A DNA stretch of 64,000 nucleotides from Patescibacteria group bacterium (GTDB lineage: Bacteria > Patescibacteriota > Dojkabacteria > GCA-002793355): NCBI GenBank assembly GCA_016860985.1, contig BOKM01000001.1:463462-527461 (forward strand), given 5' to 3'. The notes beneath the pieces are model-generated. The model had not been told where the DNA came from, searched no databases, and was given only the letters and a program-made list of their open reading frames with translations. Shown here one piece after another: positions 11,523 through 55,883 of the stretch (its first letter is position 1; every line of letters begins with the position of its first letter). Both the position numbers and the translations under genes were made by a program.

Positions 11523-14498
11523 TTATTCAGTGAGTCGGACAATCACATCTTCATTCCGTACAATGGTCTTGACCCACTTATCACCTTCCAACACAAATTC
11601 CTGCTCCCGAAGAAGCTGCTCAGAAATGAGTGAGTTATTTGCTCTCGTCACTATAACTCTAACTACTTCTGGTTCGTACCCAGATTGTTTAAAAAGCGAG
11701 AGTTGCTGTGGAATTGTAGTCATTGTGAATTCCAGAGTAACGGGCTTTGTTTCCTGAATTGCGATAACGGTTTCGCCAAGCAAATAGGGCACCTCTTTTG
11801 AGGTTTTATAAAACATTGGCTGCTTTGTATAACCTGAAGATTGCAAATAACTGAACTCTTGCGGCACATATACCCTTTGCACATTCACGTATTTACCCTC
11901 TGGATATCCCTCGCTTTTACTTTCGTTTGTATAAAGCATTGTCATTGTGGCCTTTTTGGTAACTTCATTCACAATAATATCTGTTGAGCGCTTTATATAT
12001 CGGTTAGCTTTGTTTCCTCCCCAATTCCAATCTACAGCGAACAGTGCACGCTGCTCCGGCAGAATTTTTCTGTATGTGTCGTAATAATCAAGCACGCGAG
12101 AACGAACTTCGTTGTTTGTGGAGTACACCATTATCGAACGTTGAGCGATTGCGTTCAGTAGAACTGTGATAATCTGCTGCTTTTGAGCTGCAGGAGCATT
12201 TGCCATTTTTTCCAAGAATTTTGGCATAAAGGTTGCAACTGCCTTTGTTTTTTCTTGCGATCCAGGCACAAATTCGGAATGTAAAACCCCGACCTTATCG
12301 TAAAGATTCGCTGCGTTTACCTCGCCAAGATTCTCTATCTCCACTCCTCCAATTACAGACAGAATATTTTTAACTACCTGAAAGGTCAATGAGATTGTAA
12401 CGTCATTCGCGTTTGAGACGCTCGCTTGCTTCATTAATTCGGTAACTTGAGAAGATACTTCGGACATTTCTGGACTCCAGTTACTTAGTGATGCTTTAAC
12501 TGTTTTGACACCTAGAGCTTTTTGCATATCAATCGGTGCAGGAACTCCAGAAATCAAGCCATCTACGTTATAAATGTCGTTGACGATAAGTTGTCGAACT
12601 TGCCCATTTTCGATTCCGAGCAAAGCATAGTTAGTAAACCACCCTCCAGTCGAGCGCAATTCTGTTTCGTTTTGAATCATGAGAAAGTAATTTCTTCTTT
12701 CTTTGTATCCAAGTAGGTATGGAATAAGATCGTAGGATTTTGCTACTTCTTCGATTGCAGCTGTATAGCCTGCTGATAACTCTTTAATTTTGTACACGTA
12801 ATTGCGAACAGGAGATGGAAAATCTAAAGGATTGAGGCGCTGAATTCTTGAGTTCCCAATTTTTGCATCTTGTACAGCCTGAGTAACGGCTGTTTGTTTT
12901 GCCATAATTTGGTCAATCTCTGTAAAGTAGTCGCGCGACACTGTACCAGCAGGGTTATTAGGAGAAACCTCGCTAAAGCCCTTTAAAATTGCAATCGCAG
13001 GGGCAAGAGAGTCAAGTGTGGTAGCACCACTTTCAACAAGAGATTTTGCACCATACAAGGCATTAGCGCCATTTTCGTAGAGTGCAGCTGAAGCTGGAAT
13101 ATATTTATAGTAACCAACAGCTTTATAGTCAGAAATCAAGCCATCCATCAAATCGGGTAACTCTGATGCATAGTTCTTAAGATTTTGCGATTCAAGAGAG
13201 GCAACATCTCGAGAGAGTACACTCGCGATTCTTCCCATCTTATAAATAGTCACACCAGCATGCACATATGGTGTTGCCACAAAAAATACAAGAATAAAGA
13301 CGACAAGTGCAATAATTTGCTTTGCTTTTGCATCTTTTTGAACCTGAGACTTTTTCTTTGTACGAGGTTTTGTAAACGAAAGCACAAAGAGTACAGGTTC
13401 TAATACTAATTTTTTGTAGAGCAAGGCAAAGAGACTTTCAGAAGTATTACCAAAACTCTTCGAAACGGGCTGCTGTTTTTCAGTTGCTGGCGGCTGGGGT
13501 GCTACTCCCGCTACTGGCTTCCAAGGAACATTAAGTTGCGTTGCCATTGCATCAACTGTTTCTGCTAGTGCTTGTTCTAACGGAATTTGAGGTTCCCACC
13601 CAAGGCTCAATACAGAAGGAGCTAAACAAATTTCTTTAAGATGAGCAACCTTATCATGATCAGGCAATACTTCGTTGAAAACCACTTGCTTCTCTTCTGA
13701 GGTAAGCTCGAGTAATTGGTAGGCCAAACTTAGTGAAGTAAAGGGGTGATTATACGCAGCAAGGTAAGTTTTCCCTTTTGCCTCGGGCGAAAAAGCAGCT
13801 TTCAACACGGCATATACGGCATCTTCGGTATGAACCAAAAAGTTCTGCTGCATTCCATCGCCAAAAACGTTGATTTTGCTTCGCACAAGTACTTCTCGAA
13901 CTAAGCGGGCGGTATAGGTTGGCGATGCTAAATCAGAATCGTGACCAATAAGTTCACCAATTCTAACGATTCTAGCATTTACATTGTTTCTTTCGACATA
14001 TTCTTGGACCAACGATTCTGCATATTTTTGAATTTGTATATTCGACTCAGGAATTGCCTCCAAGAACTGACTAATATATCCAGAAGTAATGAGTGTAAAC
14101 GTTGCTTCAAAAGAAACCGTTAACTTCATGTACGCATCAATTCGGTTGGACTCCCTAATAAATTCTTTATGATCAATTTTGTCGATTTCCATACTTTCTG
14201 CAAGAACTTCAGGGTACGAGCTACCAGCAGAAAGTTGGGCAAGAAAATAATAGACGTAGTCAATCTTTTTGAACTTACCAATATTCTTAAAGGTACTTTC
14301 AGAATCCATAAATAAACAATCAGACCGGTTCAACAAGTCGCCGAGTAGCTGTCGTTTTCCTGGATTCAGTTTATCGATCAACAATAGACGGCTTCCCTGT
14401 TCCAATAGAATTCGTGCCAGTTTTATTGCAACTGGGTTCGCAATATTGACCAGTACGGTAATCGGTGCAGATGATTTTGTAAATTGGTCGATTGTCAT
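11523..14498 (-). CDS. Fusion protein: degenerate NAD-epimerase/dehydratase-like domain, TM segment, DUF4012-like extracytoplasmic domain
   Basis: The N-terminal ~330 aa have an SDR/epimerase-like layout, but 'VLVNIANPVAIKLA' replaces the GxxGxxG motif. There is one TM segment ('IIALVVFILVFFVATPYV'). The C-terminal part contains 'YFLMIQNETELRSTGGW', which resembles the DUF4012 core. Confidence 0.7.
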   Translation of the reverse strand: MTIDQFTKSSAPITVLVNIANPVAIKLARILLEQGSRLLLIDKLNPGKRQLLGDLLNRSDCLFMDSESTFKNIGKFKKIDYVYYFLAQLSAGSSYPEVLAESMEIDKIDHKEFIRESNRIDAYMKLTVSFEATFTLITSGYISQFLEAIPESNIQIQKYAESLVQEYVERNNVNARIVRIGELIGHDSDLASPTYTARLVREVLVRSKINVFGDGMQQNFLVHTEDAVYAVLKAAFSPEAKGKTYLAAYNHPFTSLSLAYQLLELTSEEKQVVFNEVLPDHDKVAHLKEICLAPSVLSLGWEPQIPLEQALAETVDAMATQLNVPWKPVAGVAPQPPATEKQQPVSKSFGNTSESLFALLYKKLVLEPVLFVLSFTKPRTKKKSQVQKDAKAKQIIALVVFILVFFVATPYVHAGVTIYKMGRIASVLSRDVASLESQNLKNYASELPDLMDGLISDYKAVGYYKYIPASAALYENGANALYGAKSLVESGATTLDSLAPAIAILKGFSEVSPNNPAGTVSRDYFTEIDQIMAKQTAVTQAVQDAKIGNSRIQRLNPLDFPSPVRNYVYKIKELSAGYTAAIEEVAKSYDLIPYLLGYKERRNYFLMIQNETELRSTGGWFTNYALLGIENGQVRQLIVNDIYNVDGLISGVPAPIDMQKALGVKTVKASLSNWSPEMSEVSSQVTELMKQASVSNANDVTISLTFQVVKNILSVIGGVEIENLGEVNAANLYDKVGVLHSEFVPGSQEKTKAVATFMPKFLEKMANAPAAQKQQIITVLLNAIAQRSIMVYSTNNEVRSRVLDYYDTYRKILPEQRALFAVDWNWGGNKANRYIKRSTDIIVNEVTKKATMTMLYTNESKSEGYPEGKYVNVQRVYVPQEFSYLQSSGYTKQPMFYKTSKEVPYLLGETVIAIQETKPVTLEFTMTTIPQQLSLFKQSGYEPEVVRVIVTRANNSLISEQLLREQEFVLEGDKWVKTIVRNEDVIVRLTE

Positions 14499-20762: not shown

Positions 20763-21545
20763 ATGCGCCTTGCGATTATTGCACCAAATGCATATCTGCA
20801 GGATTTTTCAGCTTTTCATAACAACTCATACCATCTTGTTCTTGCACATCGATTCAACTCCGAGCCCGAATACCGTAGTTTTTACATTGAGCAAAGAAAG
20901 AAGACTCACAGTTTTATAATTCTTGATAACGGAGCTTGCGAACTCGGAGAGTCGATTAACAATGGCACACTACTAGAAACTGCCAGTGTCCTTCGTCCTG
21001 ACGTACTTGTTCTTCCCGACGTCTTGCATCAAAGTCAAGCAACAATTGCCAGAACAGAGAAATTCATTGAGTCCTATAAACACCAGAACAAAATAAAGTG
21101 CAAATTGATGGCAGTTGTACAGGGCAAAACAAGAAAGGAGTGGCTCTCAACATTATCTTCCTTTACCTCTAATCCATATATCGATATGATTGGGATTTCG
21201 AGTACAAACGCCGTATACCCGAAGACAAAAAACTACTATACCAGAATCAAAACACTTAGGTATTTGCATCAAAGACAACTTATAGGGAAGAAAAAAATTC
21301 ATATGCTCGGGTTAGATGACTCTGGACACTTCGAATTACGTCATTTCTCAAAATATTCCTTCATCGAAGGAGCAGATTCTAGCGCTCCAGTAGTTCATGG
21401 AGCAAAAGGGATAAAAATTTACAAGAACAAGCGTTACGAAAAGATTCGAACGTATCTACCAAGCGATGCAATCCTCACGAAGGAGCAGGTATTAGCAGTA
21501 AAAGCTAATCTGCAAGTATTTTTTGACATGGCTTCACATGAATAG
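20763..21545 (+). CDS. Minimal tRNA-guanine-transglycosylase (TGT/DpdA) superfamily-like protein
   Basis: 260 aa. Its ordered motifs 'ILDNGACE', 'AVVQGKT', 'MIGISS', 'HMLGLDD' and 'GADSSAPV' parallel the TGT motifs DSGGFQ, GIVQGG, GYAIGG, LMGVGKPDD and FDCVLPT. No C-terminal zinc subdomain is present. Confidence 0.6.
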   Translation: MRLAIIAPNAYLQDFSAFHNNSYHLVLAHRFNSEPEYRSFYIEQRKKTHSFIILDNGACELGESINNGTLLETASVLRPDVLVLPDVLHQSQATIARTEKFIESYKHQNKIKCKLMAVVQGKTRKEWLSTLSSFTSNPYIDMIGISSTNAVYPKTKNYYTRIKTLRYLHQRQLIGKKKIHMLGLDDSGHFELRHFSKYSFIEGADSSAPVVHGAKGIKIYKNKRYEKIRTYLPSDAILTKEQVLAVKANLQVFFDMASHE

Positions 21546-23292
21546 AAAAATATTTGTATCGGGCGAAGGTGCTCGAGGAGCAGGAAAAACCTCTACGTTA
21601 AATGTTCTACTGCAAGAATCTACGACTCCCACTGCTGTTAACAGGGTAGCCCCAAACATACCTACAGAGCACCTTCTTCTGATTGACACTCATAAAGCGA
21701 CAAGCCCGTTTCACAAGAGAGCGCTCGAAATACATAAACAGTGGGAAGAAGCCGTCAAAACCCCAGGTGAAGGTGCAGAGCGATTATCATGGAAAAAGTT
21801 TGAGCTCGGAATACTACAGCTACGGTATGAATCCGACAGCTATCACGACGCAACTAGCAAAGCGGAGCAAATTTTTCTCGATAGAGATATTGATACAGCT
21901 GTCGTATACTCTGCAGCAGAGATTATTTTATCCAATCCTCACAAATACGATTCGGTACGTTCGCATATTGCGCTACTACACAATCTATGGCAGAAAGTAT
22001 ATTCAGTATGCCAGACAAACGACTGGGACGTGAGCACTTTTCCACACCTTGATACCGAAGATGATGTCTTATCATTAGTTGATTTTTTAAAACAACAACC
22101 CTTAAGGGATATACCCACTAATACCTTTTACTTCTTTACAAAAGATAAGACTGAATCACTAAAAAGGAGCCACACTTTACGTATAGACACTGCACTCGAA
22201 TACAATCTCACCGTAGTACAGCAAGCAACACAAGATATTATCCAACCATTGTACCTCTATTCCTTTCTCATCCGAAAACAATTATTCCCTGAGGCGCAAG
22301 TTCATTATCTCTCTTCAGATGCGCACAACATCAAAGAGCTCGCGAATTTGGTAAAACTACATGTTAATACGACGACGCTTGAGGTTCCAGGCGCAGACCA
22401 TATCCCCGTTAAGCTACGAATACCTTTTAACAAAGACCACTCCCTACCCTCATCCATTGAGACGCTTAGCCAAGTAATATTCGAAAGCACTGTTGGATCA
22501 ACCTTCCCAAGCAAACGAGAAGTACACATTAATGGAGAATCAAATTGTGTTTACAACAATAAGGCACTGTACGAATACGCATCATTACTAGGACTTGGCC
22601 ACATTGAATTCGTCCAAATTCAACGAGAGACATTCTCTGAAACTTGTCCTGTCCACTGGGCGTGTATTGAGTGGCTTACTCCCCAAAGAGATACTGCACG
22701 AATAATTGATCTGACACCTTTTAGAATTAAGCCCTACATTTCCCAACCTTGTAAAGTTACACACAATGGGGATACATACCAACTGACCTCGCTCACACAA
22801 CAGCCTATTGAATTTACTCAAGTAAAGAAAGAAACGTCATTAATTCCAGAAAGAGCCATGGAATTCGCCTATAACGTTGAATATACTTTCCAGGAAGAAT
22901 CGTTACAAGCATTAACACGTGAGGGATATGAATTGTTAGGCCAATCAAACAACGAATCGCAGAATATATTTTTAACTATTAGGTTAGGAAGATTGTTGCA
23001 GAAACAGGAACGCATCCAAGAGGCAGTCGAATTGCTTGAGCGAGCAGTGACCACTTTCCCGCAAAATCTTATACTTGCCAGGGAAGTTGCAAAGTATGTC
23101 ATTGATGGGTACATTAAATTCGTACCACCGTATTTTTATACTTACCTCAGTAACGCAAACCAGATTCTTGAACGAACTACCCAAACAATGCGAGAACATG
23201 ATATTGATGAAACTGAAATCAATGCGTATTATGAGTATAGGAAATTTATTCCACATGCACTTAAGTTAATCACCGAAGAACATGAAAGTTGA
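21538..23292 (+). CDS. Multidomain protein: TMPK/dNK-like P-loop, transglutaminase-like Cys-His-Asp core, TPR-like tail
   Basis: 'IFVSGEGARGAGKTST' and 'LDRDIDTAVVYS' resemble thymidylate kinase motifs. 'NCVYNN..LLGLG..HWACIEWL..IIDLT' resembles a transglutaminase-like core. The C-terminus is helical-repeat-like. ATG 21538 overlaps the upstream TAG by 8 nt. Confidence 0.55.
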   Translation: MNRKIFVSGEGARGAGKTSTLNVLLQESTTPTAVNRVAPNIPTEHLLLIDTHKATSPFHKRALEIHKQWEEAVKTPGEGAERLSWKKFELGILQLRYESDSYHDATSKAEQIFLDRDIDTAVVYSAAEIILSNPHKYDSVRSHIALLHNLWQKVYSVCQTNDWDVSTFPHLDTEDDVLSLVDFLKQQPLRDIPTNTFYFFTKDKTESLKRSHTLRIDTALEYNLTVVQQATQDIIQPLYLYSFLIRKQLFPEAQVHYLSSDAHNIKELANLVKLHVNTTTLEVPGADHIPVKLRIPFNKDHSLPSSIETLSQVIFESTVGSTFPSKREVHINGESNCVYNNKALYEYASLLGLGHIEFVQIQRETFSETCPVHWACIEWLTPQRDTARIIDLTPFRIKPYISQPCKVTHNGDTYQLTSLTQQPIEFTQVKKETSLIPERAMEFAYNVEYTFQEESLQALTREGYELLGQSNNESQNIFLTIRLGRLLQKQERIQEAVELLERAVTTFPQNLILAREVAKYVIDGYIKFVPPYFYTYLSNANQILERTTQTMREHDIDETEINAYYEYRKFIPHALKLITEEHES

Positions 23293-29072: not shown

Positions 29073-30425
29073 ATGTCAAACTTATCAGTAGACGAGCGAA
29101 TTGCTCTCATAAAATCCATCACCGAAAATGGTGGAGAGTTCATCGGCGAAGATGAACTAGAAAAGGTCCTTACCTCTGGAGAGCAACTCTATACGTACGA
29201 TGGGTTCGAACCCTCTGGCCAAATGCATATTGCACAAGGAATTATCCGCGCAATTAACGTTAATAAGATGATTGACGCTGGCTTCACTTTTAGAATGTGG
29301 GTAGCTGACTGGTTCGGTTATTTGAATAACAAAATGGGCGGCGATTTAGAGAAAATAAAAACTGTTGGTCGCTATTTTGTTGAGATTTGGAAAGCAAGCG
29401 GCATGAATCTTGATAAAACAGAATTCCTTTGGACCTCAGATTTTGTTGGCCAGCGATGGTACTGGGAATTGGTTATGAAGATAGCCAAGGCAGTTACCCT
29501 CAAACGTGCGCTTAGAACAACTGCAATTATGGGGCGGACCGAAAGTGACGATCTTTCCGCTGGTCAAATCTTTTATCCGTGCATGCAAATTGCTGACATA
29601 TTCGGTGTTATGAATGCGCAAGTTACACAACTTGGGCTTGATCAGCAAAAAGTAAACGTTCTTGCTCGAGAAATAGGAGAAGAATTAGGTTACTGGAAAC
29701 CCGTAATTGTGAGCCATGGTATGTTGCAAGGATTGCAAAAGCCAGAAGACAAAAAACGAACAGTTATCTCAACCAACAATTTTATGGCTCAAGAACTGAT
29801 TTACAAAGGGAGTAAAGCTTCTATTGTAGTTCAAGGAAGAGAAGAAAACTGCATAACCCTCAGTTTTGTTAATACAAAACAAGACGTACTACGAACCGAA
29901 GATGTGTCCACAGAAAAAAGTATAAAGTACTTCGATTTGCAGATTACATTACACACCAATGGCGAGCTCGAAATACTCGAGAATACTCCAGAAAGAATGA
30001 TATCCATGAAGATGAGTAAATCAAAACCAGACACCGCCATCTTTATGACCGACACCTCAGAAGAAGTTCAGCGCAAAATTATGAAGGCATACTGTCCAGA
30101 AGGAATAATCGACGACAATCCCGTACTTGATTATTGCAAACAAATCATTTTTAACGCTCACTATCTAAAACGCGAAAATCCACTTCTGAAAGACGGGGTG
30201 TTCGAGATTAAGCGAAAACCAGAGTTCGGTGGAGATATCACCTTTGCATCGTATCAGGTACTTGAAAAAGCATATGCAGATAAACAAGTGTACCCACTTG
30301 ATCTAAAGAATACCGTTATTGAGTACTTGAATGCATTATTGCAACCAGTACGAGATCATTTTGAAAACAATGCCGAGGCAAAAGCACTTCTTGAACAGGT
30401 GCGTAGCTTTCAAGTATCACGCTAA
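29073..30425 (+). CDS. tyrS: Tyrosyl-tRNA synthetase, archaeal/eukaryotic type, with ~90-aa insertion before KMSKS
   Basis: It aligns by eye with M. jannaschii TyrRS: 'YDGFEPSGQMHIAQG', 'IFYPCMQIADIF', 'KMSKSKP', 'KAYCPEG..DNPVL' and 'KRKPEFGGD'. TATAAT lies 5 nt upstream of the ATG. Confidence 0.9.
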   Translation: MSNLSVDERIALIKSITENGGEFIGEDELEKVLTSGEQLYTYDGFEPSGQMHIAQGIIRAINVNKMIDAGFTFRMWVADWFGYLNNKMGGDLEKIKTVGRYFVEIWKASGMNLDKTEFLWTSDFVGQRWYWELVMKIAKAVTLKRALRTTAIMGRTESDDLSAGQIFYPCMQIADIFGVMNAQVTQLGLDQQKVNVLAREIGEELGYWKPVIVSHGMLQGLQKPEDKKRTVISTNNFMAQELIYKGSKASIVVQGREENCITLSFVNTKQDVLRTEDVSTEKSIKYFDLQITLHTNGELEILENTPERMISMKMSKSKPDTAIFMTDTSEEVQRKIMKAYCPEGIIDDNPVLDYCKQIIFNAHYLKRENPLLKDGVFEIKRKPEFGGDITFASYQVLEKAYADKQVYPLDLKNTVIEYLNALLQPVRDHFENNAEAKALLEQVRSFQVSR

Positions 30426-34438: not shown

Positions 34439-35812
34439 TTACCCAGCCTTCTTTGGCCTTCGAGCAACATTTACATATCGCGCTCCAACAAAAGCGAATA
34501 CTCCAATAGCATACAGCGTACCCCCAATGTATAGCAGCACATCGTCAGCAAAACCGGTTTCACTTGGAGTGTGAGTAACAGAAGGAGTTCTTGTGCCAGT
34601 TGTTGTTGGAGGTACCGTAGTTGTTGGAGGAGGGGGGAAGTTGCATGTGTAACTAGTATTGGTACAATCGTCACTTGTGTACTGACACCCAGAAGGAAGT
34701 GGAACCCTTGTACACTGAGGAGTTATCGAAGGGGTTGTTGTTCCAGTACTTGAGACTGTTGGCGTTGAGGTTGGAGTTGGGGAACCGGTGTTTGTTGGTG
34801 TCGGTGTCCTCGATGTTGTCGGAGTAGGAGTTCTTGTTGCCGTTGGACTTGGAGTACGTGTCGCTGTTGGTGAGGGAGTTCGAGTTGCTGTCGGAGTAGG
34901 AGTTCTTGTTGCGGTGGGGGTAGGGGTAACAGTATTTGTTGTTGCATCACAGTAAAAACTGCCACTCGTGCCCTTAACAACTGCTCCAGGAGCACAACAA
35001 TCTTTGATAACATCTGTAGAGGAAGCATTCAAACATTTTCTCCCAATGGCGTTAGCAACCCACTCATTTCTACAATCAAGTCCCGTCCCAAAATTTGCAC
35101 AAGAGGTATTTGAGCAAGTGTTTTTTGGATGCGAACCATAATCATTGCAATACGCCTTTGTTGGGGTTGGGACTGGGGTTGTTGGACCAATGATCACACA
35201 TGCGGTTCCGGCGCTGTTAATCACCTGCCCTGAGGGGCAACAATCAAATATTTGATCATATGTCGACCTACTTACACATTTTACATTCGATGCTCCTGAT
35301 AAAGATTTCGATGCACAATAACGGCCACTTGGGCACGTTGCATTTGTACATGAATTTTTGGCGTGATTTCCATAGCTACTGCAATACCCAGAACTTGGTG
35401 TAGGGGTGGGGGTAGGAGTTCGAGTTGGTGTTGGCGTAGCAGTTGGTGTTGTACCGGGGCAAACTCCAGAAGCAGATGGTGCTCCGTTGCGACAGCAGTC
35501 GACTATCTGATCCTGTTCTCCTATTATTCTACATTTTGTTACATACCCAGTCCCACTCAATGCACGTGATGCACATTTGTTCCCAAGATTTCCCGTTCCA
35601 AGTGCTGTAGTACACGATGTGTTATTACATGTACCTGAAGAATATGTTCCATAATTATTACAAAAGCCCGCCGCTTCCGAACCTGGCTCCCACAATTTTC
35701 TTCCTGGATCGGAAAGTAAAAAACCTGTCACGCCCAATACAATTAACCCAGCGATTGCAAAAATGATAGTTGGCAACTGTTTCATCCGATTCTTGGAGGC
35801 AAGTTTTTTCAT
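34439..35812 (-). CDS. Cys-rich repeat surface protein with Thr/Pro linkers and C-terminal membrane anchor
   Basis: N-terminal signal/TM segment, three ~65-aa modules each with 8 Cys (including a CC pair), 'TATRTPTPT' tandem repeats, a 4-Cys motif and a C-terminal TM segment 'VLLYIGGTLYAIGVFAFVG'. Confidence 0.7.
   Translation of the reverse strand: MKKLASKNRMKQLPTIIFAIAGLIVLGVTGFLLSDPGRKLWEPGSEAAGFCNNYGTYSSGTCNNTSCTTALGTGNLGNKCASRALSGTGYVTKCRIIGEQDQIVDCCRNGAPSASGVCPGTTPTATPTPTRTPTPTPTPSSGYCSSYGNHAKNSCTNATCPSGRYCASKSLSGASNVKCVSRSTYDQIFDCCPSGQVINSAGTACVIIGPTTPVPTPTKAYCNDYGSHPKNTCSNTSCANFGTGLDCRNEWVANAIGRKCLNASSTDVIKDCCAPGAVVKGTSGSFYCDATTNTVTPTPTATRTPTPTATRTPSPTATRTPSPTATRTPTPTTSRTPTPTNTGSPTPTSTPTVSSTGTTTPSITPQCTRVPLPSGCQYTSDDCTNTSYTCNFPPPPTTTVPPTTTGTRTPSVTHTPSETGFADDVLLYIGGTLYAIGVFAFVGARYVNVARRPKKAG
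34793..34925. repeat. Imperfect 24-nt coding tandem repeat (about 5 units) encoding (T/S)ATRTP(T/S)P
   Basis: The exact 24-mer tgtcggagtaggagttcttgttgc occurs at 34817-34840 and again at 34889-34912. Diverged 24-nt units lie between and flanking these copies. Confidence 0.8.
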
Positions 35813-38066: not shown

Positions 38067-39866
38067 CTATACTGCAAAGTTTCCAACTTCTGCCTCTGTT
38101 ACTTCTGCAAGATCTTCTCCTTTCATGGTAATTGAACATGTCTGCATACCTGCGTTAAACGACACCTGTTCGAGTTGCGCAATAGCGCTATCCATGTACA
38201 CTTTCATGCCCAAAAGATTGCCAAAAGGAGGGACTCCCCCAACTTTAATACCATAGGTCGCGAGAATGTTCTCTGGCTTCTCAAACTCTGCTTTTTCTCC
38301 AATGGCGGCAGTTACTGCTTCAAAGGATATTTTTTTATCGCCTGGAATAACTACCATAACCGGAGTATTGGTCTTTTTTCCAGAAAGAATAAGCGCCTTT
38401 GCTCCATTAGAGAGAGATGTTCCTCGAAGCGCTGCGGCCTCTTCACTTGTTCGCACAGCTTCGTGTTCAGAAAATTCGTATGCAACTGCACGGCTATCAA
38501 GTATTTTTTTAATTTTTGCCACAACTTCCTTATCAGAACCAAGCTTTTCCTTGATTCTATTTGCACCTGCGATTCTCTTGAGATCAGAAGGGAATAAGGT
38601 TGCCTCTCGGATATTTTGCAAGTTGAACAACTTCATGGTTAATCGCTCAAGTCCAAAAGAAAATCCTGCCTCTGAAGGCATTCCGTATTTAAAGGCTTGG
38701 AAATAGTGCTCGTAATACGCTTCAGACAAGCCTTGCTCTTTAAATCTTTCGAAAAGCTTTTCGTATTCGTGGATACGATGGGTACCTGAAAGCATTTCAA
38801 GACCTCTAAACTCAAGGTCAAAGCTAAGAGATTCCGAAGCTTCTTCTGGGTTATCCCATGTATAAAAGTTTTTGTTGCTTTTAAAGTTTACAACCCACAG
38901 AAAATCTGAACCTTTTTCCTCTAATGCCCACTTGCTAATCTCACGCTCGTCTTCCGGATCGAGGTCTAACTCCTCTCGTTCTGCTGACTTTCCGATTCTT
39001 CTTTCTATAATCTCCAAAGCTTCTCGAACTTTTATTTTCGGAAATCGACCATTTGGTAATTTGGGAAGCTCAACCCCATACAAGGCGAACACATCTTTTG
39101 AGGTCTCCACTACACCATCAACAATATGTCGAATAACATTTTCAGCAATCTGCATGGCCTCGTCGTAATTATCAATAAAGCCCATCTCCGCATCCATTTG
39201 CGTGAGTTCCATTATGTGGCGGGTAGTATTATGCTTCTCTGCTCGAAAAACGGGACCGACACAGAAAGCGCGTTCAAAGGCTGTAACCATAATTTGCTTA
39301 TAAACCTGTGGCGACTGCGCCAAATATGCTTTTCCTTCAAAGTAGTTCACTTCAAAAACACTTGCACCACTTTCAGACGGAGCACTCATAATTACCGGTG
39401 ACTTAAATTCGGTAAAACCTTGAGAGCGTAGAGATTCCGCAAACTTTTGTAAAATAACCGCTTGTACTTTAAAAATTGCTTGTTTTTTAAGATTTCTTAG
39501 CACCAAAGGTCTGTAATCCAACTCTGTGTCGATATTGACATCAATTGATTTTTTGTTGTACGAAACCGGTGGAACTTCCTTAATTGGGACCTTTATTTCG
39601 ACCGTAGGGTTAACTACTTCAACACCAATATCTGTTGAGTCAGTTTTTTTTACCGTTCCCACAACACGAACAACACTTCCGGGTTGCAACGACGCTAATT
39701 CTTTTAACGTATCTTTATTATCAACAACTACCTGAACTAAGCCACCTCGATCACGAACAATCAAGAAACCGAGTTTGCCTAACTCACGAAAGTTATGAAG
39801 CCACCCATCAAGGCGTACTTCTTTGCTCTCATATCCAGAGAGCTCTGTTGAAATAATACGTTCCAT
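38067..39866 (-). CDS. aspS: Aspartyl-tRNA synthetase (archaeal-type class IIb) fused to a C-terminal YbaK/ProX-like aminoacyl-tRNA editing domain
   Basis: OB-fold N-terminus, 'FRAEKHNTTRHIMELTQMDAEM', 'GFSFGLERL' and the core ending 'REATLFPSDLKR'. An extra ~155 aa then follow, with 'KALIL', 'VVIPGDKKISF' and 'GIKVGGVPPFG' of the tRNA_edit family. Confidence 0.85.
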   Translation of the reverse strand: MERIISTELSGYESKEVRLDGWLHNFRELGKLGFLIVRDRGGLVQVVVDNKDTLKELASLQPGSVVRVVGTVKKTDSTDIGVEVVNPTVEIKVPIKEVPPVSYNKKSIDVNIDTELDYRPLVLRNLKKQAIFKVQAVILQKFAESLRSQGFTEFKSPVIMSAPSESGASVFEVNYFEGKAYLAQSPQVYKQIMVTAFERAFCVGPVFRAEKHNTTRHIMELTQMDAEMGFIDNYDEAMQIAENVIRHIVDGVVETSKDVFALYGVELPKLPNGRFPKIKVREALEIIERRIGKSAEREELDLDPEDEREISKWALEEKGSDFLWVVNFKSNKNFYTWDNPEEASESLSFDLEFRGLEMLSGTHRIHEYEKLFERFKEQGLSEAYYEHYFQAFKYGMPSEAGFSFGLERLTMKLFNLQNIREATLFPSDLKRIAGANRIKEKLGSDKEVVAKIKKILDSRAVAYEFSEHEAVRTSEEAAALRGTSLSNGAKALILSGKKTNTPVMVVIPGDKKISFEAVTAAIGEKAEFEKPENILATYGIKVGGVPPFGNLLGMKVYMDSAIAQLEQVSFNAGMQTCSITMKGEDLAEVTEAEVGNFAV

Positions 39867-50852: not shown

Positions 50853-52673
50853 CTAGATTCCTTTTAACTCATCGACGGTTGTTGCCTGTTCCGCCTTCTT
50901 TTCCCTGAATTTTTTAAACCTTGGAAAGCGAAGTGCATAACCTGAAGAATGAAGGGGGCTTTTGGTTATTTCGTCTGCTTCGACTTCTACTACAAGCGAG
51001 GGCAATAAATAAACATCTGGAGTGAGCGACTTAGGAATAACTACATTATCCAGTTTTCTATCGGTCTTTACCTCGTCACAGGCTGCTTTAATGATTTTCC
51101 ATTGCTCGTGTGTAACCCCCGTGCCTATTTTTGTTACGGTTAGGTACTCATCTGTCTCTCGGTTATAAACAGCAGCAAGCAGTGCACCGATACCAAATTG
51201 GGCGAGTTTTCCTTCTCCGCGATAATAACCTACCAAAACGATATCAACCGTATCTGCGAGTTCTTTTTTCATCGCTTTTTTATATTTTAACCAATCAAAG
51301 TTACGCGTTCCTGGAGTATAAATAGATGACGTATCCTTAAAAATGACTCCCTCTAAACCCTCTGCCACATATTCAAGGAAAAGTTTTTCCGCCTCAGCAA
51401 CATCTTTTGGATAATGAATTGGAGTTTTAACAATTGTACGTTGAACCTCCTGATTTTCGTCGAGAAAAGTTAAGAGTTCTTTTCGAACTGAAAGTGATTT
51501 GTCCATCAAATTTTCATTATTTACCAAAAGAATATCAAAAGAGAAGACTTTAACAGGAACTTCGTTTGCTGCACCTTCTACCCCGTGTTTCCGCTTGCGA
51601 GTCATTGTTTGTTGGAAAGGAAGATACTCCTGAACGATATCATTGTAACCGATGACTTCACCATCGAGCACAATGGATTCAACAGAGACACCGTGCTTTT
51701 TTTCATACTGCAGTGGAAGCTTCTTTGCTGCTTCTACGACTTCGGGGAACATTTCGGTCATATTTTCGAGATTGCGGGAAAAAAGCATAACTGAGTAATC
51801 CTCTTTTTCATTCTGTTCTGGTTGAGAAAAAAGGCTAAGATTCGCTTCTTTTGACTTATCTTCGTGTGAAAAGTATGGTTGCCAAACTCTTTCTGCATAG
51901 ACGTTTTCAAGAACCTTTTCTTTGAATACGTGGAGTTGTATTCGCAAACCGTCATATTTTGGCTCTTCAATTGGCTCTGGAATTCTTTTGTAGATAGACT
52001 CGATTGAATCTTCACGTTCAACCAGCTTTGCTGAGACAGGAATTCCTGGTGAAAATACTGATCGTTCCGGGGCTGCTTCGCCATACTTTAGAGAGAGATA
52101 CACTGTATGCCCAATATCTGAACAATTCGCAAACAGCTTTTTTAGCTCGTCATTTTTTGTCCCCTGTAATGCGCCGAGTGCCTCAAGTATGGTTCTTTCG
52201 CTTGCTCCAAGCCGAAGTTTGCTGTTCACAATTCGCAGTGTATACTTGCCCGCTAGAGGTGAGCATCTTTTTAGCAGATTAATTAGTAATTCTTGTTTCT
52301 TTGCCTGTGAGCCTGTCCCTTTGGTTTTTGCAACATCCCACAAGAGAGAGTAGTAGTCGAGTAGGGTAAGGTCAGTCTCTTGTTTTGGTGCGTAGGCCTC
52401 CCATACTGAACCGATATCACCATATGTGGTTAAATCTTGCACAACATCTTTACCCAAGAGTGTTTCGACAACAGTTCGCAACGTTTTATCAGACAATTGA
52501 AACTCAACCGCAATAAATTCAGGGACAATTCTTCCTATTATCAAATATGCCGTAATTGCACCTTCTTCAGGGGTTGCCTGACGGAAATAATCAGTTAAAA
52601 GGGCCTGCATTTCGAGTCTTTTTGGTGTTTTCTCAATTGCCGAAAATAATTCCATTACTGTTGTCAGTTGCAT
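50853..52673 (-). CDS. lig: ATP-dependent DNA ligase (archaeal/eukaryotic Lig1-like, with N-terminal DNA-binding domain)
   Basis: Adenylation motif I 'EPKYDGLRIQ', 'MLFSRNLE', 'LDGEVI' and an OB domain 'VDIVLVGYYRGEGK'. Start ATG 52673 has TGgTACAAT 5 nt upstream. Confidence 0.88.
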   Translation of the reverse strand: MQLTTVMELFSAIEKTPKRLEMQALLTDYFRQATPEEGAITAYLIIGRIVPEFIAVEFQLSDKTLRTVVETLLGKDVVQDLTTYGDIGSVWEAYAPKQETDLTLLDYYSLLWDVAKTKGTGSQAKKQELLINLLKRCSPLAGKYTLRIVNSKLRLGASERTILEALGALQGTKNDELKKLFANCSDIGHTVYLSLKYGEAAPERSVFSPGIPVSAKLVEREDSIESIYKRIPEPIEEPKYDGLRIQLHVFKEKVLENVYAERVWQPYFSHEDKSKEANLSLFSQPEQNEKEDYSVMLFSRNLENMTEMFPEVVEAAKKLPLQYEKKHGVSVESIVLDGEVIGYNDIVQEYLPFQQTMTRKRKHGVEGAANEVPVKVFSFDILLVNNENLMDKSLSVRKELLTFLDENQEVQRTIVKTPIHYPKDVAEAEKLFLEYVAEGLEGVIFKDTSSIYTPGTRNFDWLKYKKAMKKELADTVDIVLVGYYRGEGKLAQFGIGALLAAVYNRETDEYLTVTKIGTGVTHEQWKIIKAACDEVKTDRKLDNVVIPKSLTPDVYLLPSLVVEVEADEITKSPLHSSGYALRFPRFKKFREKKAEQATTVDELKGI

Positions 52674-52712
52674 ACAGGATTGTACCACTAGCAGCCGAAA
52701 TTGCCGTAGTAT

Positions 52713-52741
52713 TTTACTTACACACTGCCACGTTATATAAT
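52713..52741 (+). promoter_or_regulatory. Candidate promoter for the ileS leader (-35 TTTACT, 17-nt spacer, -10 TATAAT)
   Basis: TTTACT at 52713-52718 and TATAAT at 52736-52741. It lies upstream of the T-box leader. Confidence 0.35.
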
Positions 52742-52747
52742 TACTCA

Positions 52748-52946
52748 GTACGCATTGACCCAGCAATCACTGGTGAGCGTCAGGAAGAAATGCACATTAG
52801 CATTGTAGAACCTGTCGGCGACCTCCGAACCAACTGGTTAAGCCATTTAGGCTAAGGGATACAAAAACGTATCTGAACGAGGGTGGTACCGTGAGCTAAA
52901 TCACTCACCCCTCTATAGGGATTTGCATTAATTTACTATAGAGGCC
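52748..52946 (+). promoter_or_regulatory. T-box leader (translational type) controlling ileS
   Basis: Canonical T-box core GAGGG-UGGUACC-GUGAG...CUCAC-CCCUC at 52879-52913. Stem III-like hairpin at 52857-52874. An alternative 9-bp helix (52910-52918 with 52936-52944) ends 2 nt before the AUG and has no U-tract. A candidate AUC-A specifier is at 52766-52769. Confidence 0.8.
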
Positions 52947-55883
52947 ATGGCACACAACGAATTTACACTCCCGAATGTCCGCAATTTTTACACTGACGTC
53001 GAACAACCTATTCTATCGTTTTGGAAAGAGAACAAAATCTTCGAAAAATCAGTAGATCAGCGCAGTGACAAGGATCGATTTGTATTCTACGACGGTCCTC
53101 CCTTTGTTACTGGTTTACCCCATTATGGGCACTTGCTTGCGAGCGTACTCAAAGACATCGTCCCTCGTTACCAAACAATGAAAGGCAAGAAAGTCGAGAG
53201 ACTCTGGGGTTGGGATTGTCACGGCATTCCAATTGAAGAGATGGTCGAAAGAAAATACAAAACAAAGAACCGAAGAGAAATCGAATCACGGGTTGGCATC
53301 AAAGAGTTTATAGAAGCCTGTGCGTCATATGTCACCGATGTTTCGGGAGAATGGGAGTGGTATATCGACAGAATCGCGCGCTGGGTCGATATGAAAAAAC
53401 CATACAGAACAATGGACCTTTCCTACATGGAAACAGTGATGTGGGTGTTTAAGCAATTCTACGAAAAAGGGTTAGTCTATAAAGGAAAACGCGTTTCTTT
53501 GTACTGCACCCGCTGTGGTACGCCTCTCTCAAACTTTGAAATCGCTATGGACAACTCGTACCGAGACCTTGAAGATCCTTCAGTATTTGTGAAATTCCCC
53601 GTCAAAGATGAAAAGAATACCTACATACTCGCATGGACAACAACACCATGGACTCTTCCGGCAAACAGTGCGTTGGTAGTTAATCAAGAGGCAGATTATG
53701 TAAAAGTAAAATCCGGCACCGATTCTATGTACCTTGCAAAAGCTCTCGTAGAAAAAGTCTTTAAAGATTTAGAATACACGGTAGAAGACGAAGTAAAAGG
53801 AGCAGCATTGATTGGGCTACATTACGAACCATTATTCAACTACTTTACTGCAGGGGAGCATGATTATCAGGTTTATCACGCAGATTTTGTCAGCATGGAA
53901 GAAGGTACAGGAATAATCCACATGGCTCCTGGATTTGGTGAGGACGACACTGCGCTCGGAAAGCAAATCGGGTTATCCATGCACGAAACAATCGACGACG
54001 AAGGAAGGCTTATACCCGAAGTTACTGATTATGCAGGCAAGTACTTTAAAGAAGCCGATCCATTTATCTCCGAAGACTTAACAAAGCGAGGTCTTATGCT
54101 AAAAGCGGAGCGAATCGTTCACAGTTATCCTATCTGTCACCGATGCAAAACACCTCTTGTTTATAAAGCACAGGACTCTTGGTATGTGAATATCCAGCAA
54201 ATTAAGGACCAACTCTACAAAAACAACGAAAATATCAACTGGATTCCAGAACATATCAAACACGGAAGATTTGAAGATGCGATTAAAACCTTCCCAGATT
54301 GGGGTATTTCAAGAACTCGTTATTGGGCAACTCCGATGCCAATTTGGGAATGTGACTCCTGTGACCACCAGGAAGTGTTAGGCTCAGTAGCAGAAATTGA
54401 AGAGCGATCAGGCAAAAAAGTTACAGACCTTCATCGTCCATACATAGATGAGCATACGTACGCTTGTAAAAAGTGTGAGAAAGGAACAATGAAGCGTGTC
54501 GCAGAGGTTGTTGATAGCTGGTTGGAATCAGCCTCCATGCCGTTTGCGCAATTCCACTATCCCTTTGAAAACAAAGAAAAGTTTGAAGCCAACTTCCCCG
54601 GTGATTTTATTACCGAATACGTGGGGCAAACGAGAGCTTGGTTTAACGTGATGCACGTGGTTTCAACTATACTTTTCGGTACAAATGCCTTCAACAATGT
54701 AATCTGCACAGGCGTTATCAAAGGAACCGATGGCCAAAAAATGAGTAAAAGCCTTGGCAACTACCCAGACCCTCGAGGTGTTATCGAAAAATACGGTGGC
54801 GACGCATTCAGACTCTATATTGCAGGAAGCGTATTACCATTAGGTGAGGACTTGAACGTTTCTGAAGAATCAATATCTGCCCCCGGAAAAGAGATTCTCA
54901 TGCCACTAATGAATACATACAAGTACTTTGCGTTATACGCCAATCAACATACCTTTGCTTTTGACCAAAATGCAAAATCGGAGCATGTACTCGATAGGTG
55001 GATTCTTGCACGTGTTAATTCTGTTGTTAGAACAATAGATTCAATGATTGCCGGATATACACTTCCAAAGGCAATTGCAGAGATTAAGCCCCTTGTAGAC
55101 GACATTTCCACTTGGTACATCCGAAGATCCCGAGATCGTTTTGTTGAGGGTGATAACAATGCATTGCAAACGTTATATCAAGTACTTCTTCTTGTGGTTA
55201 CCGCAATAGCACCAATCTCACCGTTTATAGCAGAGTATCTTTACCAAGAGTTAAAACGTGCGTTACCTACAGACCTTCAACAGGAATCAGTGCACCTACT
55301 CCTTTTCCCGTCACTTGCAGAGCAAACTGCAGAAGAACAATCAGTCCTAGCAACAATGGAACTTGCACGAAAGGCTGCATCGCTTGGGCAAAGTATTCGA
55401 GTAGAAAAAGCAATTGCACTCAAACAACCGCTTAGCCAAATGTTAGTTAATACAAAGGAGAAGCTCACAGCAGAATACCTAGACCTTTTATCAGAAGAGC
55501 TTAATGTTCAGGAGACACTCGCCGTGACCGAATTAACAGAAAAAGAGTTTTTGGCGGTTAAGAAAGATCAAGGAATAGAAGTCGGCTTAAATCTCGAAAT
55601 TACACCAGAACTTGCAGAAAAAGGGTTACTTCGCGAAGTGACAAGAGCGATCCAAGCCTCAAGAAAGAATGCTTCTCTCCAAATCGGGCAACATGCAAAG
55701 GTGCGAATTTTCACAGAAAGTACCGCAATCAAGGAACTTGTTGCAAAATACGGCACAGAGCTAAAGCAGGGAACACTCCTCGAAAGCATCGATACCGTTC
55801 AGCAACCACTTGGTGAAAACGCATTTACAGCAGCTGTAGGGCCACAGAAAGAGCAATTATCCATTGAAGTCACGCCACTTTAG
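52947..55883 (+). CDS. ileS: Isoleucyl-tRNA synthetase (type 2, eukaryote-like)
   Basis: 'PPFVTGLPHYGHLL' (HIGH), 'GQKMSKSLGN' (KMSKS) and a CP1 editing region. 978 aa. Confidence 0.96.
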   Translation: MAHNEFTLPNVRNFYTDVEQPILSFWKENKIFEKSVDQRSDKDRFVFYDGPPFVTGLPHYGHLLASVLKDIVPRYQTMKGKKVERLWGWDCHGIPIEEMVERKYKTKNRREIESRVGIKEFIEACASYVTDVSGEWEWYIDRIARWVDMKKPYRTMDLSYMETVMWVFKQFYEKGLVYKGKRVSLYCTRCGTPLSNFEIAMDNSYRDLEDPSVFVKFPVKDEKNTYILAWTTTPWTLPANSALVVNQEADYVKVKSGTDSMYLAKALVEKVFKDLEYTVEDEVKGAALIGLHYEPLFNYFTAGEHDYQVYHADFVSMEEGTGIIHMAPGFGEDDTALGKQIGLSMHETIDDEGRLIPEVTDYAGKYFKEADPFISEDLTKRGLMLKAERIVHSYPICHRCKTPLVYKAQDSWYVNIQQIKDQLYKNNENINWIPEHIKHGRFEDAIKTFPDWGISRTRYWATPMPIWECDSCDHQEVLGSVAEIEERSGKKVTDLHRPYIDEHTYACKKCEKGTMKRVAEVVDSWLESASMPFAQFHYPFENKEKFEANFPGDFITEYVGQTRAWFNVMHVVSTILFGTNAFNNVICTGVIKGTDGQKMSKSLGNYPDPRGVIEKYGGDAFRLYIAGSVLPLGEDLNVSEESISAPGKEILMPLMNTYKYFALYANQHTFAFDQNAKSEHVLDRWILARVNSVVRTIDSMIAGYTLPKAIAEIKPLVDDISTWYIRRSRDRFVEGDNNALQTLYQVLLLVVTAIAPISPFIAEYLYQELKRALPTDLQQESVHLLLFPSLAEQTAEEQSVLATMELARKAASLGQSIRVEKAIALKQPLSQMLVNTKEKLTAEYLDLLSEELNVQETLAVTELTEKEFLAVKKDQGIEVGLNLEITPELAEKGLLREVTRAIQASRKNASLQIGQHAKVRIFTESTAIKELVAKYGTELKQGTLLESIDTVQQPLGENAFTAAVGPQKEQLSIEVTPL

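Follow-up and report, generated by a model that had tools for sequence, protein, structure and literature searches.

A synthetase gene extended by a deacylase domain

The window, by which we mean the whole 64-kb stretch of DNA analyzed here, carries a single unbroken ORF of 599 aa on the reverse strand at positions 38067–39866, as seen from the ORF reading of the window. This aspS::deacylase gene is complete, with 599 codons followed by a TAG stop codon at 38067–38069, and its product contains three Pfam domains, all features named below lying on the same strand. An OB-fold anticodon-binding domain is found at the N-terminus (residues 17–90, 39597–39818; PF01336, tRNA_anti-codon, E 1.2e-14), followed by a class IIb catalytic domain (residues 112–427, 38586–39533; PF00152, tRNA-synt_2, E 9.8e-76). 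Class II motif residues of the AspRS core showed no variation among 48 fused homologues. As stated in the initial annotation the core ends with REATLFPSDLKR (residues 420–431, 38574–38609), and unfused relatives terminate 2–18 residues beyond this position. A linker of about 13 residues, IAGANRIKEKLGS (residues 432–444, 38535–38573), leads from here to a YeaK/ProXp-ST1-like aminoacyl-tRNA deacylase domain (residues 445–599, 38070–38534). The linker is constant in length and variable in sequence within the fused clade, and its pLDDT lies at about 71–78 in the full-length predicted model. The model as a whole reached a pLDDT of 88.1 and a pTM of 0.74, so that the inter-domain arrangement is only moderately confident.

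The additional domain had originally been recognized from the peptides NGAKALILSGKK, VMVVIPGDKKISF, YGIKVGGVPPFGN and VSFNAG, and all four are indeed located downstream of REATLFPSDLKR in the same frame. The range assigned to it at that time, 38067–38540, extends from residue 443 to the stop codon and corresponds to the structural domain including its N-terminal helix. A scan with PF04073 (tRNA_edit) gave a strong match at residues 468–588, covering model positions 1–122 of 123 with E 2.7e-26 and 92.5 bits (cutoff 25.5); a scan of the tail by itself gave E 8.3e-27. This confirms a protein consisting of an archaeal-type AspRS core and a C-terminal PF04073 domain in one polypeptide.

The deacylase-coding part contains, close to its start and only a few codons beyond the linker, the A-rich run aaaaattaaaaaaata (about 38505–38520), a sequence type prone to indel errors, and we therefore considered whether assembly or annotation had artificially joined two separate genes. 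The two parts are not separated by any stop codon or frameshift, and four contigs assembled independently (three of 50–200 kb, one of more than 1 Mb) encode exactly this 599-aa protein; on one of them (L099) the DNA of the gene is 100% identical as well. Of the best 120 homologue clusters (NCBI, JGI, ENA and Logan) about 55 also have the three-domain architecture, at 43–92% identity and with tails of 161–169 aa, and colinear fusions are present in about 25 species genomes. Close relatives have kept the synteny UbiA, Exo_endo_phos, NUDIX, aspS::deacylase, RodZ-like, helicase. Comparison with the DNA of the closest relative gave pN 0.098, pS of about 0.72–0.73 and dN/dS of about 0.04 for the deacylase part, and pN 0.043 and dN/dS of about 0.02 for the AspRS core, the dN/dS figures being approximate because dS is saturated. 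The deacylase part is under strong purifying selection. An artefact, which we consider virtually impossible, is refuted by the recurrence of the ORF in four assemblies and by the colinear fusions elsewhere, and this selection also speaks against it.

Identity of the deacylase domain and type of the AspRS core

The tail domain has the YbaK-type alpha/beta fold of the INS/YbaK superfamily. Deacylases of this superfamily have a strictly conserved lysine and a GXXXP loop in common (PMC11286415), and both are found here. The lysine is K490 (codon at 38397–38399), which aligns with YbaK K46, YeaK K52 and ProRS-INS K279 and is invariant in 48 of 48 fused proteins as well as in 173 of 173 family members compared. 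The loop G543-G-V-P-P547 (38226–38240), whose invariant G543 and P547 bound the segment aligned with YbaK G101–P105, is unchanged across the 48 fused proteins down to 43% identity. The common alignment recovers the known YbaK K46 and G101–P105 and INS K279.

The initial annotation had described the tail as a YbaK/ProX pattern. This holds at the level of the PF04073 superfamily, but not for YbaK or ProX proper: the equivalog of YbaK, the Cys-tRNA(Pro) deacylase (TIGR00011), scored 68–72 bits against a cutoff of 153.25. On the common scale of a family profile YeaK reached 121.9 bits, YbaK and 1wdv 63.6 bits each, ProXp-x 57.1 bits and INS 18.6 bits. Profile alignment with hhalign gave E 6.6e-30 for YeaK versus 1e-14 for YbaK, and YeaK aligned with the domain in BLASTP at 27% identity (E 2e-20). 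The residues R481, G488, A491, F570-N571 and S578, which distinguish the family from YbaK/ProX, are identical in YeaK; R481, N571 and S578 correspond to YeaK R43, N137 and S144 at probable pocket positions and are conserved in at least 88% of family members. No other free-standing subfamily matched as weakly as ProXp-ala, which was rejected as a counterpart; the C. crescentus protein (5vxb) gave E 0.15 in a single-sequence comparison and scored 41 bits against the profile. The cis-editing architecture of ProRS was likewise rejected, since the domain sits C-terminal after motif 3 and not between motifs 2 and 3. By sequence comparison the closest characterized relative is E. coli YeaK/ProXp-ST1, not YbaK, ProXp-ala or ProX.

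In an NJ tree without support values YeaK nests inside the wider family, in which in-family scores range between 203 and 223 bits. Scores above 200 bits within the family versus 122 for YeaK, together with T473-S474 in place of YeaK K35-C36, suggest a subfamily distinct from YeaK, which may equal cluster ProXp-8 or ProXp-9; its specificity may also differ from that of YeaK because identity is only 27%. With a profile of free-standing relatives the best PDB match was 3op6 (119 bits), and we know of no crystal structure of E. coli YeaK. Our literature search found no mention of 3op6/lpg1207 and no description of CPR synthetase editing domains or of ProXp-7/8/9. A deacylase-mining paper of 2026, considered as an account of the YeaK-like family, concerns the AlaX family instead.

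The AspRS core passed both equivalogs for aspartate--tRNA(Asn) ligase, NF003483 clearly (463.9 bits, cutoff 353) and TIGR00458 marginally (370.6 bits, cutoff 368.4). Fused homologues are labeled in the databases as plain aspartate--tRNA(Asn) ligase. The N-terminal OB-fold contains GWLH24, with a His that we take to be typical of non-discriminating archaeal-type AspRS; on W26H/K85P as determinants of non-discrimination a literature search yielded no usable information. From the equivalog scores, and from gatCAB and tRNA-Asn(U1-A72) in related loci outside the window, the core is probably non-discriminating. No tRNA gene was found in the 64 kb of the window, and none of the 20 large ORFs scanned there encodes ProRS (proS), AsnRS (asnS) or GatCAB. 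Profile and equivalog scores thus agree with the original proposal of an INS/YbaK-superfamily deacylase covalently tethered to an archaeal-type, probably non-discriminating AspRS.

Distribution of AspRS-deacylase pairings

The initial annotation had called for a survey of such fusions, and they proved to be widespread. Scanning species genomes with a junction-spanning alignment revealed single-ORF fusions of about 597–629 aa in Dojkabacteria, in other Patescibacteria, in at least 12 Chlamydiota MAGs and in one Legionellaceae MAG. One of the Chlamydiota MAGs with a fusion is a 2.2-Mb chromosome. In the NJ tree, which has no support values, the archaeal-type fusions (Dojkabacteria, Chlamydiota, Legionellaceae) all fall into one clade. 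Its signature residue is E529 (codon at 38280–38282), a position at which the family splits between Glu and Ala: Glu is found in 98% of the fused domains and in 89% of an aspS-adjacent sister group, whereas 104 other free-standing members, YeaK, YbaK and the PDB relatives have Ala and no Glu at all. This immediate sister group consists of free-standing deacylase genes; in three of the three cases checked the gene is convergent to an unfused aspS, at a distance of 20 bp to 2 kb. A single inversion would interconvert this arrangement and the fusion. In a tree of the AspRS cores fused and unfused Dojkabacteria sequences interleave, suggesting repeated loss or fission, and many Dojkabacteria AspRS lack the domain; taken together this suggests that the deacylase function is dispensable or can be supplied in trans.

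All other AspRS-linked branches of the deacylase family carry Ala529. They include fusions to bacterial-type AspRS in a Nanoarchaeota SAG (L047), in Patescibacteria (L035 and L036) and in another member of the Dojkabacteria (L031). The three of these that were scanned with NF001750, L047, L035 and L031, scored 561–787 bits against a cutoff of 443, while L036 was grouped with L035 by sequence resemblance and by its weak score with the archaeal-type core HMM. Linkage without fusion also occurs: in one operon (L032) the deacylase ATG lies 7 nt past the aspS stop codon, in another (L058) aspS and the deacylase gene share 18 nt, and a further locus (L039) has the order aspS - deacylase - asnS. PF00152 was the sole fusion partner domain among about 240 relatives for which precomputed Pfam architectures were listed. 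Of 30 other loci surveyed that carry free-standing family members, about 29 had no aspS nearby, indicating that the deacylase family at large has no obligatory tie to AspRS. We found no conserved neighbor across lineages besides AspRS itself; sub-groups have neighbors such as GluRS, PNPase, PBPs and similar genes. Sequence comparison indicates that the AspRS-deacylase pairing arose more than once, and independence of the fusions follows mainly from the two AspRS types and the E/A529 signature, the NJ trees being without support values.

At a few loci the pairing is accompanied by components of the indirect asparagine pathway. In L047 the fused aspS is followed by a GatC-like ORF, GatA and a GatB-like ORF, all within 6 kb. 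Another locus (L007) encodes a GatA whose partial sequence scored 422 bits with TIGR00132, and has a tRNA-Asn gene that precedes aspS by 27 nt; at a third (L009) a tRNA-Asn gene lies about 560 nt from a sister-group deacylase. Since a recombinase gene adjoins it, the tRNA-Asn of L009 could be an integration site. In both tRNA-Asn genes U1-A72 and G73 are present, the features that GatCAB recognizes (PMC9976931). Such links are suggestive only.

Possible role of the tethered domain and comparison with known systems

AspRS is treated as a synthetase without need of editing, and to our knowledge almost all associations of INS-type deacylases are with ProRS. We give an even chance to the reading that the tethered domain proofreads the products of AspRS after transfer, with Ser/Thr-type residues on tRNA-Asp/Asn as the likeliest substrates. 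The archaeal-type, putatively non-discriminating AspRS would charge tRNA-Asp, and probably also tRNA-Asn, with aspartate. After transfer the acylated CCA end on the AspRS dimer would swing, or be recaptured, into the pocket of the YeaK/ProXp-ST1-branch deacylase tied to the synthetase by the linker of about 13 residues. There the wrong ester would be hydrolyzed in a predicted pocket of K490, the G543–P547 loop, R481, N571 and S578 ahead of the tRNA reaching EF-Tu. Substrates would most likely be tRNA-Asp/Asn mischarged with a small polar amino acid of Ser/Thr type, perhaps a beta-hydroxylated analogue; this expectation derives by homology from R481, N571 and S578, which are common to YeaK. We know of no report that AspRS misactivates Ser or Thr or needs editing. 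ProXp-ST1 and ProXp-ST2 clear Ser/Thr-tRNAs produced by several synthetases including the class IIb LysRS, and for ProXp-ST1 (YeaK) itself Ser-/Thr-mischarged tRNAs of ThrRS, AlaRS, IleRS, ValRS and LysRS have been named (PMC11295145; PMC7373986).

The asparagine loci could also be read as pointing to a different target. The domain would then be a fail-safe of the Asn pathway, hydrolyzing Asp-tRNA(Asn) that has escaped GatCAB and that stems either from the non-discriminating AspRS or from AsnRS misactivating Asp; it would tell this substrate from Asp-tRNA(Asp) by U1-A72 versus G1-C72. The gatCAB cluster at L047, the GatA and tRNA-Asn genes by aspS at L007, the tRNA-Asn near the sister-group deacylase at L009, the GatCAB-type U1-A72 and G73 in both of these tRNA genes, the deacylase between aspS and asnS at L039 and the coincidence of the E529 signature with aspS linkage are all in line with this role. 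We nevertheless regard it as unlikely. Competition with GatCAB for an obligatory intermediate would create a futile cycle, and the co-localizations amount to a handful of loci, including the one in which the tRNA-Asn adjoins the recombinase gene. An Asp-specific pocket formed around the family-invariant R481 had been considered and is weakened by the same Arg in YeaK; because R481, N571 and S578 are common to the Ser/Thr-acting YeaK, these probable pocket residues are no evidence for specificity towards Asp and count against the fail-safe.

Homology to YeaK, which is broad in tRNA specificity (PMC11295145), might equally indicate a general ProXp-ST1-like trans-editing factor that clears products of other synthetases, for example AlaRS, ThrRS, ValRS, IleRS or LysRS, with the AspRS tether providing only affinity for tRNA, dimerization or co-expression in a small genome. 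Most family members are free-standing and away from aspS, and the phylum has many unfused AspRS, as such a factor would have it. A neutral tether, however, would be expected to vary its partners, and the sole partner among the roughly 240 relatives listed is AspRS, a pairing apparently reached independently on two AspRS scaffolds and also in the form of operons; we consider a general factor doubtful. Hydrolysis itself might be questioned, since the conserved Lys and the GXXXP loop have been described as stabilizing aa-tRNA (PMC11286415) and their conservation is thus no proof of it. A non-hydrolytic domain could bind the aminoacylated 3' end in a complex resembling a transamidosome and protect Asp-tRNA(Asn) or pass it to GatCAB, or pass Asp-tRNA(Asp) to EF-Tu, with which the gatCAB linkage of L047 and the existence of an AspRS-GatC fusion family (NF009460) would fit. 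All characterized INS-superfamily members with these motifs are hydrolases, though, and the full motif set of YeaK is retained, so that a mere binder appears very unlikely.

Proofreading of AspRS products is consistent with a pairing that was made or kept several times independently, which suggests that AspRS has a quality-control partner in the lineages concerned. A deacylase that is conserved, selected and repeatedly paired with AspRS implies an unrecognized fidelity problem at Asp/Asn codons, which could consist of mischarging by AspRS or of leakage of Asp-tRNA(Asn). Three groups of host-dependent microbes show the pairing, which involves two different AspRS scaffolds. In a bolder form, which we regard as improbable, the YeaK-like deacylase family would represent the first proofreading partner dedicated to AspRS and a third safeguard of the Asn pathway beside GatCAB channeling and EF-Tu rejection, removing Asp-tRNA(Asn) or the adduct of an Asp analogue such as beta-hydroxy-Asp from tRNA-Asp/Asn, and recruited repeatedly by fusion or operon formation in symbionts with reduced genomes (Patescibacteria, DPANN, Chlamydiota). 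The protein also provides a first functional lead for the uncharacterized INS subfamily around lpg1207/3op6 and a testable system with one polypeptide, a K490A control and defined tRNAs.

Fold and chemistry of the domain are already known; the recurrent AspRS partner is new. Our literature search found no description of an AspRS-deacylase (AspRS-YbaK) fusion. The initial annotation had noted that such deacylases are free-standing or form the INS domain of ProRS and that AspRS normally has no editing domain. Reviews agree with the former, describing INS-superfamily members as single-domain proteins except for the ProRS INS domain and adding ProXp-ala-ProRS fusions (PMC11295145). The latter is in accordance with another review, according to which only 10 of 23 aaRSs have a described editing activity, AspRS not being among those named in the passages considered (PMC7373986).

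Compared with YeaK/ProXp-ST1 the domain has retained the H, R43, G50, K52-A53, the GxxPP loop, D124, F136-N137, G139 and S144 (YeaK numbering), but YeaK is a free-standing single-domain protein of broad tRNA specificity whereas the domain of the window is fused to AspRS. The Legionella pneumophila protein lpg1207 (PDB 3op6), an uncharacterized structural-genomics protein, is likewise free-standing. YbaK and ProXp-x (TTHA1699, 2cx5) are more distant, with profile scores of only 57–64 bits, and YbaK differs by L37, S129 and D136 at the probable pocket positions. The ProRS INS domain and the protist ProXp-ala-ProRS share the fold, the site of Lys and GXXXP and the covalent attachment of a deacylase to a class II synthetase (PMC11295145). 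The INS domain, however, is inserted between motifs 2 and 3 and ProXp-ala is placed N-terminally on ProRS, both belonging to other subfamilies (18.6 and 41 bits, respectively), while the domain described here is C-terminal on a class IIb AspRS. A precedent for a C-terminal module of the Asp/Asn-tRNA pathway on AspRS is given by the bifunctional AspRS-GatC (NF009460); its module is GatC and not a deacylase, and the protein of the window scores 96 bits against a cutoff of 1379.

The reading frame of the fusion gene and other genes of the window

A few codons beyond the linker of the aspS-deacylase fusion gene, just within the start of the deacylase-coding part, lies an A-rich run (aaaaattaaaaaaata, window 38505–38520). 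This run is a potential site for indel errors; the reading frame across it is intact in 4 assemblies.

An ATP-dependent DNA ligase with the complete set of DNA_ligase_A_N, _M and _C domains is encoded at window 50853–52766 in this bacterial (Patescibacteria) genome; the window ORFs that were scanned yielded no NAD-dependent LigA. Two further synthetase genes are that of an IleRS of 978 aa with DUF5915 at its C-terminus (window 52947–55883) and that of a class Ib (Trp/Tyr-type) enzyme of 450 aa (window 29073–30425). An ORF of 991 aa (window 11523–14498) shows DUF4012 and a partial NAD-dependent epimerase match. Two large ORFs at window 21523–23292 (589 aa) and 34439–35812 (457 aa) are without a Pfam match at E ≤ 0.001.

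Deacylase domain of the Legionellaceae fusion

In the fusion from Legionellaceae (locus L033, 1–1833) the deacylase domain appears to be partly degenerate: it has lost the segment around the TSE...RG motif, carries IHCG in place of FNxG, and scores 96 bits with the family HMM versus about 175 in the other fusions. The conserved Lys and the GGVPP loop are retained.

Unfused deacylase genes and tRNA-Asn genes

In a Woesearchaeota MAG (locus L032, 8190–8201) a TGA forms the stop of a bacterial-type aspS and the deacylase reading frame carries on in-frame, with its ATG 7 nt 3' of this TGA. The layout could reflect the recent fission of a fusion or an ordinary operon, or it could be a candidate for read-through. 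At a second Woesearchaeota locus (L039, 5676–9819) 0.9 kb separate a bacterial-type aspS from a free-standing deacylase gene; an overlapping asnS, matching NF003037 with 499 bits, comes next. Here the deacylase is flanked by the two synthetases handling Asp and Asn.

Genes for tRNA-Asn(GTT) were found 27 nt upstream of aspS at locus L007 (8310–8381) and about 560 nt from a sister-group deacylase at locus L009 (4367–4440), where the tRNA gene adjoins a recombinase gene. Both contain U1-A72 and G73, the elements read by GatCAB.

An asparagine-pathway cluster in a DPANN archaeon

In a single-cell genome of Nanoarchaeota (locus L047, 6435–14169) the deacylase is fused to a full bacterial-type AspRS, including its insertion domain. 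After the fusion gene come an ITPase-like gene, a GatC-like ORF, a gene for a cyclophilin, GatA and a GatB-like ORF. This is an Asn-pathway cluster of bacterial style within a DPANN archaeon.
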